From the NCBI GenBank assembly GCA_963768675.1, contig CAVYIV010000015.1, positions 156,345-220,344 of the forward strand: a DNA stretch of 64,000 nt. The letters are read 5' to 3'. Numbering within the stretch: the first letter of the stretch is position 1; each line of letters starts with the position of its first letter. This document shows positions 6,792 through 38,316 of this stretch, in pieces. The stretch is from an uncultured Chloroflexia bacterium. Lineage in GTDB: Bacteria > Chloroflexota > Limnocylindria > Limnocylindrales > CSP1-4. The notes beneath the pieces were generated by a model. The model made no database searches, had not been told where the DNA came from, and saw nothing but the letters and a program-made list of their open reading frames with translations. Position numbers and translations under genes: made by a program.

Positions 6792-7396
6792 AGGCGGAAC
6801 CTCGAATCGACGTCGATGCTGGCTACGACGCCGAGGTCAACACCAGCAGGGCGATGTAGACCCACGACGACCGCGACCGCCAGGTAGACCCAGAGCGGGA
6901 GGCGACGTCGAGCCGACCGCAGGCGAGGGGCCGCGGTCCCACCACCGCTGTTCAGATCAGGCGCGCCAGCCGCCCCGGGACTGGCCTGGCTGCGGAACGT
7001 GTTGGGAGTTCGCTGGTCACGAAGAGTGTTGGGGCGGACCTCGGGGGAGCCGCCCGGCCGGTACGTCATGCGCCGCCTCTCCCCTGCCGGCCGGAAACGG
7101 CCTGGCTACCACTTAGCGTGCCACTGGAACGCAATGCGTGCAGGCCTCGACGCGCACGCTCGTCGATGGGTCGCGGCTGCACGCCGGATGGACGACGGCC
7201 TAACGGACCATGGCATGTAGATGGTGATGGCACCCGATCTGCGGCCGAACGGCCCTTGAACGCGGGGGGCGACGGGACGATGGTTCAGAAGTCGGGGTGT
7301 CGATGCCAGGACCTGTTGATGCGCGGGTCGATCGGGTCGCCGAACCGCGCAGGGTCGCTGGCGAAGCTGGGCTCGTCGACCCGGTGGAGGCGCACC

Positions 7397-27460: not shown

Positions 27461-28377
27461 ATGCAGATCGACGACGTGCGCCGCGTCCTCATCATTGGCA
27501 GCGGCACGATGGGCCTGCAGATCGGGCTCCAGTGCGCGACCCATGGGTACGAAGTTGCCCTGTACGACATCGAGCCGGCCGCCCTGGACGCCGGGATGAC
27601 TCGCCTCCGCGCCTATGCGGATGAGCAGGTCAGGGCGGGCGTCATCGATGCCGGGTCGCGCGAGCGGGCGCTCGCCGCCATCACGACCACGACCGATCCG
27701 GCAAGGGCAGCCGAAGAGGTCGACTTGGTGAGTGAGTCGGTGCCCGAGGATCCGGCGCTGAAGGGACGGGTGCTCGGCCAGTTCGACGCGCTCTGCCCGA
27801 CTCGGACGATCTTCACGACCAACACCTCGTCGCTGCTGCCGTCGATGTTCGCCGCCGAGACGGGACGGCCCGACCGCTTCGCGGCCTTCCACTTCCACCT
27901 GCCGGTCTGGGCGGCTAACGTGGTCGACGTGATGCCCCACCCCGGAACCTCATCGAGACGATCGAGGTGCTCCTGGCCTTCGCCCGACGTATCGGGCAGA
28001 TCCCGATCCACCTGCGCCAGGAGAGCTACGGCTACGTCTTCAACGCGATGTACACCGCGGTCAACGAGGCGGCACTCACGCTCGTCGCGAACGGCGTCGC
28101 CTCGCTCGAGGACGTCGACCGGGCCTGGATGGGGATCTTCAAGATGCCCATCGGCCCGTTCGGGATGCTCGACGGCGTCGGGCTCGACACCACCTGGCAC
28201 ATCGCCGACTACTGGGCACGCCAGACGGGAGACTCGCAGCGGCGCCGCAACGCCGACTTCCTCAAGACGTACCTCGATCGCGGCTGCCTAGGCGCCAAGA
28301 GCGGCGAGGGCTTCTACCGCTACCCCGACCCCGCCTACGCCCGATCCGGCTTTGTCGAGGTAGAGGGCCGGATCTAG
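27461..28377 (+). pseudogene. hbd: 3-hydroxyacyl-CoA (3-hydroxybutyryl-CoA) dehydrogenase with one frameshift at ~27950
   Basis: The N-terminal Rossmann piece VLIIGSGTMGLQIGLQCATHGYEVALYDI...FTTNTSSLLPSMFA lies in the ORF 27329 frame. The C-terminal dimerisation domain ...IHLRQESYGYVFNAMY...GPFGMLDGVGLDT lies in the ORF 27967..28377 frame. A GGAGGAG RBS precedes the start. Confidence 0.65.
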
Positions 28378-28413
28378 GAACCATCGCCGGGAGACGAAGG
28401 GCGCGCCCATTCA

Positions 28414-28443
28414 TATACTCACCGTCGTCGCAGTGGGGGGCGT
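28414..28443 (+). promoter_or_regulatory. conserved promoter/leader motif copy A: TATACTCACCGTCGTCGCAGTGGGGGGCGT
   Basis: 63 nt upstream of the VOC gene start. A -10-like TATACT is followed by a conserved 24-nt block. Confidence 0.4.
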
Positions 28444-28476
28444 CACACCCTGTCGGCAAATAGACAAGGAGACGGC

Positions 28477-28836
28477 GTGAACCTGAACAGCATCCTGATC
28501 GGATCGGCGGATCCGCAGCGTCTGAAGGACTACTACGCCAGGCTCTTCGGCACGCCCGGCTGGAACGAGGGTCCGTACAGCGGGTGGCAGCTCGGGACGG
28601 GCTTCCTCAGCGTCGGGCCGCACGACCAGGTCACGGGCGGCAACGCTCAGCCGGGACGGCTGATCTGGAACATCGAGACCTCCGACGTCAAGGGCGACTT
28701 CGAGCGGCTCAAGGCGGCCGGTGCCACTGTGATCCAAGAGCCCTACCAGTTCGGTGATCCCGCCGAAACCTGGATCGCCACGTTCGCCGATCCCGACAAC
28801 AACTACTTCCAGCTCCTCAGCCCGATGTCGATGTAG
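28477..28836 (+). CDS. VOC / glyoxalase-bleomycin resistance family protein
   Basis: 119 aa with a GTG start after an AAGGAGA RBS. The paired beta-alpha-beta-beta-beta architecture is plausible. Preceded by the conserved TATACT leader motif (see findings). Confidence 0.6.
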   Translation: MNLNSILIGSADPQRLKDYYARLFGTPGWNEGPYSGWQLGTGFLSVGPHDQVTGGNAQPGRLIWNIETSDVKGDFERLKAAGATVIQEPYQFGDPAETWIATFADPDNNYFQLLSPMSM

Positions 28837-28886
28837 CTGTAGCTGTGCTTCGCAGGGACGACAGGCGGGCCTGCCTGTCAGCGCCC

Positions 28887-29324
28887 CTACCCGAGGCGCT
28901 CGAGGACCACCACGGGGATGACGCGGGTCGTGCGGCGCTGGTACTCGGCGAAGTTCGGGTTGAGCGCGGCGTGCCGGGCGAAGAGCCGGTCGCGCTCCGC
29001 CCCCTCGGTCAGGCGCGCCCGCGCCTCGAACGCCTCGCCGCCCACCTCGACGGTAACGAGCGGGTTCGCGACAAGGTTGTGGTACCAGGCCGGGTGGACC
29101 GGAGCGCCGCCCCTCGAGGCCACGATCACGTGGTGCTCGCCCGCGCGGGAGTAGACGAGCGGGGCGAGGCGCGGCTGACCGCTTCGCGCGCCCGTCGTCG
29201 TCAGGAGCAGGACCGGGCGACCGGCGAAGGGGCCGCTCGTGACCTGGCCGCCGCTGGCCCGGAAGTCGGCGATGAGCGCCGTCGTCATCGCCGCGTAGGC
29301 GGCCCGGGGATCTGGCTGGGTCAT
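28887..29324 (-). CDS. deazaflavin (F420)-dependent nitroreductase family protein, Ddn/DUF385-like
   Basis: Has the split-barrel signature ...VLLLTTTGARSGQPRLAPLVY...HPAWYHNLVANP...VEV. Confidence 0.7.
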   Translation of the reverse strand: MTQPDPRAAYAAMTTALIADFRASGGQVTSGPFAGRPVLLLTTTGARSGQPRLAPLVYSRAGEHHVIVASRGGAPVHPAWYHNLVANPLVTVEVGGEAFEARARLTEGAERDRLFARHAALNPNFAEYQRRTTRVIPVVVLERLG

Positions 29325-29335
29325 AGATTCAACCC

Positions 29336-29797
29336 TCAGGCTCGGATCGTCTCAACGAGGGCCCGTCGATCGAGAAGCAGGTCGAGGGCATCGGTGATCG
29401 AGCGGCACACCACATCCGCGACCCCGAGCGTGGGACCCGCGGCTCCCTCCGGCCCGAGGATCGCGATCCCCAGCCGGGATGCGCGGAACATCGCCTCGTC
29501 GTTGCGTCCGTTGCCGATCGCGACCGTGTGGTGGGCACCGATCCCCCGGACAAACGCCGCCTTGTCGGCGCCGGTTCGAATGGTCGTGACCGACACGCCA
29601 AGCCGGTCCCCGAGGGCATTCGCGGTGCCCAGCGTGTCCGCGGTAACGATGTGCAGCGCGAGGTCGCCGGCCAACTTCTCGAGTCGCTCCGCCACGCCAT
29701 CGATCAGCTCGCCCCGGTTTGTCAGGGTGCCGTTGATATCGAGGACGAGGTGCTCGAGCCGGATCGGATCGGCGCCCGGGATCTCGATCGTGAGCAA
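29336..29797 (-). CDS. HAD-superfamily hydrolase, COG4087-type small phosphatase
   Basis: Carries LVLDINGTL (HAD motif I), ...HIVTADT... and AIGNGRNDEAMF (motifs III/IV). Confidence 0.65.
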   Translation of the reverse strand: MLTIEIPGADPIRLEHLVLDINGTLTNRGELIDGVAERLEKLAGDLALHIVTADTLGTANALGDRLGVSVTTIRTGADKAAFVRGIGAHHTVAIGNGRNDEAMFRASRLGIAILGPEGAAGPTLGVADVVCRSITDALDLLLDRRALVETIRA

Positions 29798-29820
29798 GTT
29801 TCCAGCCCTCCTGTCTGTGT

Positions 29821-30226
29821 TCAGGCGGTCACGACCGTCAGGCCAAGCGCGCGCGCAGCCTGCGCCTGGCGGAGATCGAACGTCACGAAGCCGAACCCGG
29901 GTGCGGAGACTCGTTGCGCGGCCGCGAGATGGAGGGCATCGAGGGTTCGCACGCCGGTGGTCTCCGCGATCGAGGCCGCCGATTCGCAGGTTGCCTCGTC
30001 GAGCTCGATGATCGAGAAAGAGCGCAGATCGTCGGCGAACGCGGCTCGGGCGGCGACGAGGTCGCGTCCCGAGAGCAGGCGAGCGAGGTTGCGGCGAACC
30101 TCAACGATCGTATGGCGGGCAGTGAGCAGCTCGCCGTCGGCTCGCAGCAACGCGTCCGCGGCGGCCGAGTCGGCCTCCTCGACGTACCGCTTGAGGAGGG
30201 CGCTCGAAATCGACGTAGGCGCTCAC
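29821..30226 (-). pseudogene. vapC: PIN-domain toxin VapC with a +1 insertion at codon ~7
   Basis: The GTG at 30226 overlaps the antitoxin TGA. VSAYVD is followed by an extra T in a TTT run, and then SSALLKRYVEEADSAAADALLRADGELLTARHTIVEVRRN... continues in the ORF 29821..30150 frame to ...FVTFDLRQAQAARALGL. Confidence 0.6.
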
Positions 30227-30483
30227 TCGCCGCGATCCTCGGCCAGCGCGTCGAGCACCCGCCTGGACGCCATCGACCGGCGCACCGGACCAAGCGGCGA
30301 ACCGGTGCCCGGCGTGATCCAACCTGCGCGAATCCCGTCCTCGATGCGCGCGCGACCGGGCACCGGACCGAGCACCGCCTTCGGCCGTCCGCGGTCGGTT
30401 ACCCGCAGCACCTCTCCCCGCTCTGCCCGATCCAGGTACTCGGAGAGGCGCTGTTTCAGCTCCCGGATCCCGACATCAGCCAT
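30223..30483 (-). CDS. Phd/YefM-type antitoxin
   Basis: The 86-aa N-terminus MADVGIRELKQRLSEYLDRAERGEVLRVTDRGRPKAVL is characteristic of Phd/YefM. It sits immediately upstream of vapC. Confidence 0.6.
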   Translation of the reverse strand: MADVGIRELKQRLSEYLDRAERGEVLRVTDRGRPKAVLGPVPGRARIEDGIRAGWITPGTGSPLGPVRRSMASRRVLDALAEDRGE

Positions 30484-30613
30484 GTAGGCACATTACCACA
30501 GCGATGTGTCTACATCACGGAGAGGCCGCCTGTGCTCGCGCTGCGCTCGCCAGGCTCTAGGGATGCGGCCGATGACCCTTGCCCGAGGCCGGGGACTTCA
30601 CCGGGGAACGTCG

Positions 30614-30877
30614 CTACCACAGCCGGATGAGCAGCACCACGGCGATCAGGACCCCCGCCACGCCCGTCGCGGCCGCGGCCCGCGGTCCCAAGCGGACCCT
30701 GGCGACCGCGACGAAGACCGTGACGATCACCGCCGCAGCGAGGCGGGCAACGATCGGCGAGGCGACGTGGGACGGTGAGCTGCGATTGATGATGATGCCG
30801 GCCGCCGCGATCGCCACGATGAGGACGACGGAAACGAGCCAGAGCCTCCTGTTCCCAGGACTCTTGATCCATGTCAT
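30614..30877 (-). CDS. small two-TM membrane protein, paralog 1
   Basis: 87 aa: MTWIKSPGNRRLWLVSVVLIVAIAAAG...AAAATGVAGVLIAVVLLIRLW. Similar to the adjacent ORF. Confidence 0.4.
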   Translation of the reverse strand: MTWIKSPGNRRLWLVSVVLIVAIAAAGIIINRSSPSHVASPIVARLAAAVIVTVFVAVARVRLGPRAAAATGVAGVLIAVVLLIRLW

Positions 30878-30891
30878 GAGGGCACGGCCTC

Positions 30892-31179
30892 TCAGCGCCG
30901 CGTACGAGAGATCGGGGGGATGCGTGCGTAGCCTGTCAGGTTGAGCACCACGATCGCGACCAGGACCCCCGCCACGCCGGTCACGGCCGCGGCCAGCGGC
31001 CCGGCCGCGAGCTTGGCGGCGACCACAAGGGCCGTCACGGCCACGACCACCACGAGCCGTACGGCGAGGACGGGACCGAGGCCGGGCTGAGGCCGCTGCG
31101 GGCGCCAGGTACGAGCGACCACGGCGCCGACCGCCACCATGGCGACGATGATGACAAGGGTGGCGAGCCAGAGCTCCAC
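30892..31179 (-). CDS. small two-TM membrane protein, paralog 2
   Basis: 95 aa: MELWLATLVIIVAMVAVG...AAAVTGVAGVLVAIVVLNL. Shares its TM2 motif (AAA(A/V)TGVAGVL) with the neighbouring ORF. Confidence 0.4.
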   Translation of the reverse strand: MELWLATLVIIVAMVAVGAVVARTWRPQRPQPGLGPVLAVRLVVVVAVTALVVAAKLAAGPLAAAVTGVAGVLVAIVVLNLTGYARIPPISRTRR

Positions 31180-31318
31180 GCGACACGACCTTTCTAGGCA
31201 AGCATCGCACCTCGCCTGTCGCCGTCAATGACGTGCCGTCGTGCGGCGGGCGGGAACGTCGGCGGCAACGCGCCGTCGCAATCAGCCACAGCCGTGGACT
31301 ACTTCCTGCGGGACGGGC

Positions 31319-31738
31319 TCAGAGCCATTTCTCCATGAAGACAAGCTCACGGCGCACGTAACCGACCCGGTCGTAGAAGCCCGCGACCTCCACGTTGTCC
31401 GGCTCGACGTGGAGGTTGATCTTGGCACAGCCGTGTGTCCGCAGGCGGGCCTCCACCTCGGCCACGAGGCGACGGCCCACGCCGGAGCCCTGCCGCGCCG
31501 GCGCCACGGCAAGATGGTGGAGCCAGCCGCGACGGCCATCGAACGTTCCGAGCACCGCGCCCATGATCTGGCCCTCGGCTTCCGCCACGACGAAGAGGTC
31601 GGCGGCATGGTCGAGCGTTGCCGCCAGCGCAGCACGGGAGTCGGAAACGGTAAGCCTGAGCCCGACCGCCTGCCACAGTGCCACCACCTCCTCGTAGTCG
31701 GGCCAGTCGAATGTGCGGATGGTGACCGTAGGCGGCAT
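31319..31738 (-). CDS. GNAT family N-acetyltransferase
   Basis: HLAVAPARQGSGVGRRLV is acetyl-CoA-binding motif A. The start was placed at the second Met. Confidence 0.65.
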   Translation of the reverse strand: MPPTVTIRTFDWPDYEEVVALWQAVGLRLTVSDSRAALAATLDHAADLFVVAEAEGQIMGAVLGTFDGRRGWLHHLAVAPARQGSGVGRRLVAEVEARLRTHGCAKINLHVEPDNVEVAGFYDRVGYVRRELVFMEKWL

Positions 31739-31964
31739 CGCGGCCAGTGTATCGGGATGCCACGCCGGCCCCAACAGCGTTCAAGCGGAGCCAGCCAGGT
31801 TGCCCGGGCAGAGGAGAGTGCCGACAAGGCGGAGGTCTGCGACCACCTCGTCCCGCAGCGGCTCGATCGCATCCACATCGGGGCGGCCACGGAGAAGACG
31901 CGAACATGCCGGGGTTCCCGTACCGCTCGCTGGCCTCGTCGGGGGCGGGAGGCATGCCTGCTCC

Positions 31965-31994
31965 TATACTCCCCGTCTTCGCACTGGGGGGCGT
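31965..31994 (+). promoter_or_regulatory. conserved promoter/leader motif copy B: TATACTCCCCGTCTTCGCACTGGGGGGCGT
   Basis: 76 nt upstream of the 89-aa ORF start. 27/30 identical to copy A. Confidence 0.4.
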
Positions 31995-32040
31995 TCCAGC
32001 CATCAGGCTGTCGAGACGTGCCTCCCCAAGGGGGGCAGAA

Positions 32041-32310
32041 ATGCCGAAGATCGTGGTCACTGCGGCGGTCAAGGATGTCGAGGCGTGGCTGAAGTACAAG
32101 CCGCAGCTCATCGCCCAGCTGTCCGCCGTCGCGTCGGACGGGGCCAGCTACGTCGCGGCGGATGGCAGCAACCGCGTCGCCAGCACGTGGGACGTCCCCG
32201 ACCTGGAGGCATTCCAGGCAGCCCAGAGCGCACCCGCCTCTCCCGAGATGGCGGCGGCGATGGAAGCGTACGGGATGATCCCGCCGATGACGGTCTACGT
32301 CGAGAAGTAG
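32041..32310 (+). CDS. hypothetical small protein (89 aa)
   Basis: MPKIVVTAAVKDVEAWLKYKPQLIAQLSAV...MTVYVEK, preceded by an AAGGGGGG RBS and the conserved TATACT leader motif. Confidence 0.45.
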   Translation: MPKIVVTAAVKDVEAWLKYKPQLIAQLSAVASDGASYVAADGSNRVASTWDVPDLEAFQAAQSAPASPEMAAAMEAYGMIPPMTVYVEK

Positions 32311-32406
32311 CCCGACCACCACAGACGAGGCGCCGCGAGAGTCACGGTCATCGCGGCGTCTCGCGGTCTTTGGGCGGCGCCATGCCAGGGTCGCGTCAGC
32401 AACCGC

Positions 32407-38093: not shown

Positions 38094-38316
38094 CGACGGC
38101 GATGGTACCCGGTCATGCTGTCATCTGCAAGACATCTACACACTCTCGCTGGAACATGGCCGAGATAGTTCCCAGGCACCTCTATGCAACCTTCACAATA
38201 CATGCTATCCTCCTCGACACAAGAGATGTAGGGGGGGCGACGAGAACCAGGTGTTGCAGGTCGGGATCACCCTGGAGCCGCGCGCCAGCGGCGACGTACC
38301 GGGGTCGCGCTCCCTG

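Follow-up and report, generated by a model that had tools for sequence, protein, structure and literature searches.

A 64,000-nt stretch of contig CAVYIV010000015.1 from an uncultured Chloroflexia bacterium (the window; all positions count from its first letter) carries a repeated 30-nt sequence upstream of two forward-strand genes, one encoding a 119-aa VOC-family protein (VOC1) and the other an 89-aa protein. By a pattern scan of the window, the 30-mer TATACTC(A/C)CCGTC(G/T)TCGCA(G/C)TGGGGGGCGT was located at two sites only, 28414-28443 and 31965-31994, both on the forward strand, forming direct repeats 3.5 kb apart. The copies share 27 of their 30 positions and differ at three; the first starts 63 nt before the GTG of VOC1 and the second 76 nt before the ATG of the 89-aa open reading frame (ORF), so the scan bore out the two-copy motif and the distances given in an earlier note on this DNA. 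No further site was found in the window with up to three mismatches allowed, and none occurred in 100 dinucleotide-preserving shuffles. The likeness of the two copies exceeded the 30-mer, reaching 5′ to a -35-like hexamer and 3′ to ...CTGTCG. The elements of each copy and the genes that follow them are listed below.

28391-28396, forward strand: -35-like hexamer of the VOC1 copy, GAGACG, 17 nt 5′ of the -10 hexamer
28414-28443, forward strand: first copy of the 30-mer, with the -10 hexamer TATACT (28414-28419), the discriminator, the predicted first ~18-20 transcribed nt, and a G-run (28435-28440)
28444-28476, forward strand: remainder of the truncated VOC1 leader; homology to the leader of the 89-aa gene ends with CTGTCGG at ~28456, and the ACAAGGAGACGGC ribosome-binding region begins at ~28464
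28477-28836, forward strand: VOC1, 119 aa, GTG start, Pfam Glyoxalase_6/Glyoxalase
31942-31947, forward strand: -35-like hexamer of the 89-aa copy, GGGGCG (GGGACG in close relatives), 17 nt 5′ of the -10 hexamer
31965-31994, forward strand: second copy of the 30-mer, with the -10 hexamer TATACT (31965-31970), the discriminator, the start of the leader, and a G-run (31986-31991)
32041-32310, forward strand: the 89-aa gene, ATG start, without a Pfam family, predicted to encode an ABM/NIPSNAP-type dimeric alpha+beta barrel

The earlier note had taken the two genes to be unrelated, a view that their arrangement in related Chloroflexota contradicts. Related contigs were fetched via VOC homologues, which carry the NCBI name Candidatus Limnocylindrales, and by an 80-locus metagenome search with the 89-aa protein; the loci are designated here by L numbers. 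In L006, L014-L017, L019, L020, L022, L094, and L099, the 89-aa gene lay directly 5′ of VOC1 on the same strand with a gap of 81-88 nt, and a single promoter-leader preceded the 89-aa gene, with none in the gap between the two. As judged by this gene order, the window genes are a conserved gene pair. Seven minus-strand genes separate VOC1 from the 89-aa gene in the window, assigned by Pfam to an F420H2 quinone reductase, a HAD-like hydrolase, a PIN/Phd toxin-antitoxin pair, two small ORFs, and a GNAT acetyltransferase; no integrase or transposase was found among them by Pfam assignment. The closest relative, L012 (Chloroflexota H2_222; 89-aa protein 96% identical), has the same split arrangement with two copies of the element, and in L100 and L101 VOC1 follows the same 3-hydroxyacyl-CoA dehydrogenase gene and has its own leader copy, as in the window.

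A strict pattern scan (TATACTNNCCGTCNTCGCNNNGGGGG; one genome per species) returned eight matches in six metagenome-assembled genomes (MAGs), all from uncultured Chloroflexota, so that the high-GC Gram-positive setting proposed earlier for TATACT was not upheld. Seven of these matches stood before orthologues or paralogues of the 89-aa gene (88/89 aa) and one, in L012, before a VOC orthologue. The upstream regions of 72 distinct 89-aa genes could be aligned over ~75 nt from the -10 box to the ATG, with a consensus that runs (T/C)A(T/C)ACT-C-[~10 pyrimidine-rich nt]-TCGCAC-Y-GGG(TC)GGCG in its 5′ part and TCC..GCC-ATCA-GGC..CGAGGCG-CGCCTCCC-G-AAGGAG-N5-7-ATG in its 3′ part. Because the alignment covers this whole length, the 30-mer represents the -10 element, the discriminator, and the presumed first ~20 transcribed nt of a longer leader. 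The -10 element is of the TAnnnT type, being TATACT in both window copies and nearly invariantly CATACT, CACACT, or TATACT in the 72 leaders, and GGGAC(G/A) or TTGACG constantly occurs 17 nt 5′ of it. At the same 17-nt spacing, the window hexamers GAGACG and GGGGCG match TTGACA at three and two of six positions, respectively. Since the block lies directly 3′ of a -10-like hexamer with a -35-like element at 17 nt, its 3′ two-thirds would form the start of the 5′ untranslated region, in agreement with the earlier note. In the window-type leader GGGGGGCG replaces GGGTCGGCG, and a Shine-Dalgarno (SD) sequence AGGGGGG replaces AAGGAG; the G-tract of the majority of leaders, GGGUCGGCG, bears little resemblance to an SD sequence.

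A covariance model of the leader, searched against the window and related loci (611 kb), gave 93 matches, 68 of them distinct, at E<=1e-5, all before 89-aa genes except for extra copies in L047 and L054; the window 89-aa leader scored 64.8 bits (31965-32046; E 4e-12). In L047 and L054, a second full leader precedes the gene of a 127-aa protein (VOC2; Pfam Glyoxalase) that stands just 5′ of the 89-aa gene. A profile hidden Markov model (HMM) of the 5′ half of the leader found nothing else significant in 654 kb. Thus, across the ~650 kb of related DNA covered by the profile scans, the element occurred only before the 89-aa gene, VOC1, and this second VOC family, and two copies were present within one genome in the source of the window, in L012, and in L054/L047. 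The candidate mini-regulon suggested earlier was supported, as this element stands before the same genes in many related genomes. Rfam 15 at the gathering threshold recognized only tRNA in the 64-kb window; at E<=10 it gave nothing in 28300-28600 and two chance-level matches (E 6 and 9) in 31900-32100. A literature search found no description of the motif.

Two side observations concern VOC2. The second leader region before VOC2 spans 2950-3058 in L054 and 597-~705 in L047. At the position of the 89-aa start it has a 9-codon mini-ORF, ATGACCGGAGAGGACGACGATGCTTGCTGA, that overlaps the ATG of VOC2 and appears to be left over from the 89-aa start and to serve translational coupling. L098 502-607, the promoter and 5′ leader of an 89-aa gene, is essentially the same sequence as L054 2905-2985, which lies before VOC2; judging from this match, the conserved leader seems to be a recombination point at which promoters are swapped among the genes of the module.

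A third, looser copy had been proposed before an OmpR-family gene. The string is indeed present at 38205-38241, but it shares only TAT(A/C)CTC and the G-run with the element, at a spacing of 19 rather than 15 nt, and it was matched neither by the covariance model at E<=10 nor by the 5′-half HMM at E<=50. This site lies outside the element family, and an SD-like tract may be all that its G-run represents. The sequence GGGGGGCG itself occurred at five sites in the window (7264, 28435, 31986, and 38232 on the forward strand and 46766 on the reverse strand), fewer than the 15.6+-4.5 expected from shuffles. Three of the five lie in leaders, shortly 3′ of TATNCT-like hexamers, and the sites at 7264 and 38232 have GGGGGGCGACG(G/A)GA in common.

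The VOC1 copy of the leader is truncated. In the window its likeness to the 89-aa leader extends from the -35 element through CTGTCGG, beyond which the sequence continues as ...ACAAGGAGACGGCGTG, and its ribosome-binding region is also found in the spacer between the 89-aa gene and VOC1 of relatives, for example as AACAAGGAGACGGCGTG in L006. The copy is thus a promoter with ~45 nt of leader fused to the own ribosome-binding site of VOC1. It lacks the CCUCCC strand (the CGCCUCCC tract) of the 89-aa leader, and the covariance model scored it at only 12.4 bits. The same strand was missing from the VOC1 copies of L012, L100/L101, L013, and L102; in L013 (CAGACTCGCGATCTTCACACCGGGTCGGCC) and L102 (CATACTCGGCGTCCTCGCACAGGTCGGCGTCCCAGCC) the promoter and 5′ half were present without the 3′ half. 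The VOC1 gene of L013 and the 89-aa gene of L001 lie ~325 kb apart on one 624-kb contig. L111 has kept the VOC1 promoter with a degenerate 5′ leader, and more distant VOC1 genes follow a 66-aa ORF (L112) or belong to a TetR-methyltransferase-VOC operon. In this operon (L103-L110), whose stop and start codons overlap, the last gene encodes a VOC1 homologue (P0183) 77% identical to the window protein, and in that lineage the VOC enzyme appears to be controlled by a classical repressor rather than by the leader. No significant or shared fold was found among the VOC1 leaders.

The 30-mer of VOC1 was conserved at 30/30 positions in the orthologues of L100 and L101 and at 29/30 in that of L012, whereas the fourfold degenerate sites of the VOC1 genes of the window, L100, L101, and L012 were 78-82% identical. 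The probability of at most one change in 30 positions at 0.8 identity per site is ~0.01. Likewise, the -35/-10 spacers of the two window copies were identical at 8 of 17 positions, compared with 27 of 30 for the 30-mer. By these sequence comparisons, the 30-mer block is under purifying selection in both copies, including the copy without the RNA partner strand. Neutral decay after a duplication was excluded because the 30-mer is constrained relative to both the fourfold sites and the spacers. The earlier note had named as the alternative a chance segmental duplication, without further copies in the genome and without co-regulation of the two genes. No third unrelated gene family with the motif was found in the six MAGs, but the likeness is clearly not that of a neutral chance duplication.

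The same note envisaged a small RNA structure and advised folding of the 5′ untranslated regions. Folded singly, the 30-mer and both leaders gave z-scores of -0.85 to +0.93, so the 30-mer alone folds no better than shuffles; in the 89-aa gene, however, it is the 5′ part of the ~75-nt leader, in which a hairpin core was predicted. The predicted RNA structures around the 89-aa gene and its SD sequence are listed below.

31986-32026, forward strand: predicted leader hairpin of ~41 nt, in which GGGGGGCG(U) at 31986-31994 pairs with (G)UGCCUCCC at 32018-32026
31997-32010, forward strand: predicted apical stem, CAGCC-AUCA-GGCUG
32028-32035, forward strand: SD sequence of the 89-aa gene, AAGGGGGG, containing a G6 run, following the CCUCCCC tract directly and ending 5 nt short of the ATG
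32310-32375, forward strand: GC-rich hairpin right after the stop codon of the 89-aa gene, z -2.85 (also at 1386-1450 in L020 and 10268-10340 in L001)

In the leader hairpin the G-run is the 5′ strand and CGCCUCCC, abutting the SD sequence, is the 3′ strand, with a CCYC:GAGG helix and the apical GCC-AUCA-GGC stem inside. This was the minimum-free-energy topology in nearly all of 67 distinct leaders (mean z -2.16; z<-2 in 53%; window z -2.54). In a MAFFT alignment, which misaligns the apical stem with its variable loop length, 84.8% of cells were paired, compared with 39-54% in slid controls; in a model-based alignment, the values were 84% and 44-57%, and 21 double-change cells were counted against 11.1+-2.5 expected, a number reached by 0 of 500 shuffles, where the alignment is fitted to the hairpin structure and the double changes may be few events. 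Covarying pairs were 35-59 (CG 37 / UA 14) and 34-61 (UG 44 / CG 11 / UA 9). The covariation of the hairpin is thus modest. When CCUCCC was forced in the predictions onto either the G-run or the SD sequence, the median energy gap was 1.0 kcal/mol, and 60% of the leaders lay within 2 kcal/mol. Because the two predicted states are nearly isoenergetic, the folding models suggest that the 89-aa leader is a translational on/off leader. The G-run type and the SD type covaried (42/2/1/19), and the energies of the two helices were correlated (r=0.60), which fits what a balanced two-state leader would need.

Further pairings were considered and rejected. Pairings of the 5′ end with the SD sequence or with the G-run, attractive in single folds, were no better in native pairs than in swapped ones, and a helix at the VOC1 start region, fitted by two VOC-specific substitutions, is broken in L012. 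Between GGGAGGCATGCCT, located in the -35/-10 spacer upstream of the 89-aa gene (31947-31959), and AGACGTGCCTCCC in the 3′ strand of the hairpin (32014-32026), complementarity reaches 85% over 13 nt, which would be relevant only if transcription also starts further upstream.

Considering these data, we think it probable that the repeat is the core of a conserved promoter-leader marking a small co-regulated module, not a chance match. A cassette composed of the -10 element TATACT, a GC-rich discriminator, and the ~20 first transcribed nt would drive the 89-aa ABM/NIPSNAP-like gene and VOC enzymes, with transcription presumably starting a few nt after TATACT. In close relatives, the 89-aa gene and then VOC1 would stand under a single cassette, and in the lineage of the window the pair would have been split by the seven minus-strand genes, leaving VOC1 with a truncated paralogous cassette. 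Given the split pair and the paralogous copy at VOC1, the likeness of the two 30-mers would be one of descent, kept by selection. In the 89-aa leader, the anti-SD-like CCUCCC would leave the SD sequence open when paired with the G-run and close it when paired with the SD sequence itself. With only the promoter and the 5′ segment left in the VOC1 copy, the two genes would have in common the same promoter type and a reader of the first ~25 nt, either as DNA or as RNA, through which they are likely co-regulated.

Several observations weigh against this reading or parts of it. A promoter scan with the E. coli consensus called no promoter at either copy. RNAalifold found no consensus structure on the MAFFT alignment, column shuffles were paired at 83.3% of cells compared with 84.2%, indicating that most of the pairing comes from conserved columns, and whole-leader folds were no better than shuffles (mean z -0.72). 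A partner-swap duplex test detected no covariation for 5′-end:SD or 5′-end:G-run, and G-run:CCUCCC reached only p~0.15. The covariation of G-run and SD types may reflect a single clade split. In the adjacent-pair relatives, a hairpin stands after the 89-aa gene, which makes co-transcription of VOC1 with that gene putative. Finally, the VOC1 copy keeps its G-run despite the missing 3′ strand, so an RNA hairpin cannot explain its conservation. As VOC1 retains the 5′ segment without an RNA partner, a separate reader of this segment is needed, which could be a DNA-binding regulator at -10 to +25 or a factor recognizing the 5′ end of the RNA.

The first of these readers leads to the main rival explanation, in which the -10 to +25 block is an operator box bound by a trans-acting repressor (e.g., of the MarR, TetR, or ArsR type, in an electrophile/quinone detoxification regulon) that occludes RNA polymerase at both promoters, the hairpin being secondary or irrelevant. 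We regard this as possible though not probable. The block is conserved in sequence with little compensatory change, it persists in the VOC1 copies devoid of the RNA partner strand, and it overlaps the -10 element and the presumed start site, the classical position of a repressor. The same box also occupies a fixed position at two or more promoters of one genome (the window, L012, and L054/L047). The ABM-like protein, the VOC enzymes, and the nearby F420H2-quinone reductase and nitroreductase genes would fit regulons controlled by a transcription factor, and another VOC1 lineage lies in a TetR-headed operon. Such an operator is weakened by the missing symmetry, as the block has no dyad or direct repeat and a search at seed 6 detected no inverted repeat inside the 30-mer. 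It is weakened further in that no regulator gene is conserved beside the cassette across the loci, with a TetR gene near L014, a MarR-like gene near L099, and none in the window or L001. Moreover, conservation before the 89-aa gene spans the whole ~75-nt leader to the SD sequence, beyond a 16-20-bp box. Palindromes do occur in the -35/-10 spacers (GGGCGCGCCC at 28399-28408 and GGCATGCC at 31951-31958); they are not conserved in L100, L012, and L005. Sigma-54 and extracytoplasmic function sigma factor readings of TCGCAC...GGCG and GGGAC...CGTC were rejected by inspection for a missing -24 box GG and wrong spacings.

If the RNA itself were the sensor, the ~41-nt hairpin and its flanks would act as a riboswitch or RNA thermometer responding to a ligand, a protein, or temperature and toggling CCUCCC between the G-run and the SD sequence, an explanation we consider unlikely. 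It would account for the conserved hairpin with internal loops beside the SD sequence, the mutually exclusive SD pairing and near-isoenergetic alternative folds of the predictions, the covarying strengths of the two helices, the absence of a conserved adjacent regulator, and the confinement of the element to one functional gene set. It has to contend with the lack of an Rfam match, an architecture of just one simple hairpin with neither a multi-stem junction nor a pseudoknot, the weak covariation, and VOC1 copies in at least three lineages that lack the 3′ half and for that reason cannot be the same switch. We attach similarly little probability to the wider proposal that the ~75-nt leader is an undescribed RNA switch class of Limnocylindria-like Chloroflexota, in which the triad of G-run, CCUCCC, and SD sequence would gate translation of an ABM-like/VOC detoxification module by sensing a small molecule (e.g., an electrophile/quinone-related metabolite), a protein, or temperature, with the conserved 5′ segment as a shared recognition site that would work also in the truncated VOC1 copies. 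Less credible still is a 5′ stabilizer or standby site, at which the SD-like G-run (GGGGGG/GGGAGG) would bind the 30S subunit or form a 5′ structure and protect both mRNAs from 5′-end-dependent decay. In both genes the G-run does stand close to the presumed 5′ end (about 10-20 nt away) and distant from the start codon, its sequence recurs in the true SD of the 89-aa gene, and a function residing in the 5′ segment alone would suit the truncated VOC1 copies; most leaders, however, carry the poorly SD-like tract GGGUCGGCG, a local 5′ hairpin was unsupported by the folds, and the window holds no 16S rRNA (tRNA only) for judging complementarity. The least probable explanation, already largely refuted, is a neutral relic of a segmental duplication that copied the promoter and left 27/30 identity without shared regulation. 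In keeping with it, the window has only two copies, which are direct repeats separated by 3.5 kb, no third gene family was found at the strict level, and leaders appear to recombine between genes, as in the shared promoter of L098 and L054. It is contradicted by the randomized spacer (8/17) beside the conserved 30-mer, by the conservation of 29-30 positions across VOC1 orthologues compared with 78-82% at fourfold sites, by the occurrence of the element before the same gene families in divergent lineages, and by the fixed distance of each of the non-identical repeats from its start codon. Its variant, in which the repeats are att sites or the ends of a mobile element, was rejected, with no recombinase between the copies and three differing positions. 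An upstream ORF (GTG GGG GGC ... TGA, overlapping the GTG of VOC1) was likewise dismissed, as the 89-aa copy has CTG and a 1-nt deletion in L012 shifts the frame.

The 89-aa protein has 649 homologues, with at least 75% identity among the 120 matches listed; an exact look-up gave no record of the window protein itself. Its AF2 model (pLDDT 71.6) has a beta-alpha-beta-beta-alpha-alpha-beta order, and Foldseek matched it to NIPSNAP/ABM proteins including YgiN with TM-scores of 0.62-0.71 at E~1e-3 (5k9f, 9lmm, 4hl9, and 1r6y). The protein is therefore predicted from the model to be an ABM/NIPSNAP dimeric alpha+beta barrel at the fold level only, because it has no Pfam match. Sequence matches to designed 'Pizza' propellers in the PDB were discarded as an artefact of a short repeated motif. 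The hairpin after its stop codon was stronger in L020 and L001 (z -4.97 and -3.66) and is kept with or without VOC1 next to it; in the adjacent-pair relatives VOC1 starts ~25 nt after it. This hairpin may be a terminator, an attenuator, or a 3′ stabilizer that sets the expression ratio of the 89-aa gene and VOC1, and would thereby form the 3′ end or an insulator of the 89-aa unit. Between the two motif copies, the PIN-domain toxin and Phd/YefM antitoxin pair occupies 29824-30483 on the minus strand. The small ORFs at 30617-30877 and 30895-31179, also on the minus strand and adjacent, encode 87 and 95 aa without a Pfam family; their DNA is visibly alike (…CAGGACCCCCGCCACGCC…GCGGCCGCGGCC…), and they are probably tandemly duplicated small membrane proteins.

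The element behaves like a lineage-specific cis-regulatory promoter/leader of a kind already known; it belongs to no Rfam family, and the literature search found no description of it. By gene order and a shared control region, it links a very conserved, unannotated 89-aa protein to VOC enzymes, and it offers a starting point for finding the function of a module abundant among those Chloroflexota of soil, peat, and sediment that have no cultured representatives. As a compact, testable candidate cis-regulatory element, it would illustrate how co-regulation can outlast the break-up of a gene pair via duplication of a promoter-leader. A specialist would find the element tidy but not surprising in type, unless it proves to have a ligand or its own dedicated regulator.

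Among known systems, the element resembles the lineage-specific 5′ leaders and orphan riboswitch candidates of the Rfam type in having a conserved non-coding block from promoter to SD sequence before a narrow and coherent gene set, and a hairpin that contacts the ribosome-binding site through its 3′ strand and has alternative pairings. It differs from them in its absence from Rfam 15, its single irregular hairpin, and its little covariation, and, unlike in typical riboswitches, truncated copies with the 5′ strand only are conserved as well. In anti-SD/anti-anti-SD translational leaders and RNA thermometers (ROSE, fourU), a CCUCC-type tract beside the SD sequence can sequester it. The 89-aa leader has a CCUCCC-type tract in this position, whereas most predicted folds place it on the upstream G-run, and no link to temperature is seen. 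STAB-SD 5′ mRNA stabilizers of the cryIIIA type carry a G-rich, SD-like tract close to the 5′ end and well upstream of the start codon; the present leaders likewise have a G-rich tract near the presumed 5′ end, but its majority variant GGGUCGGCG is not SD-like.

The MhqR and YodB/CatR regulons of B. subtilis are repressor-controlled electrophile/quinone regulons with VOC dioxygenases. A box common to the promoters of VOC-family and small oxidoreductase-type genes, arranged as an operon or as separate units, is a feature they have in common with the module described here, which differs in its phylum, in the conservation of the whole leader, and in having neither a palindrome nor an identified regulator. 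A further parallel is the maintenance of a regulon by promoter duplication after the split of an operon; here the event may have run either way, with the operon first or the separate units first, and VOC1 genes with their own 5′ half are also found in distant lineages. As in such a duplication, formerly adjacent genes each carry the same promoter region, and the junction between the leader and the ribosome-binding site of VOC1 is visible.

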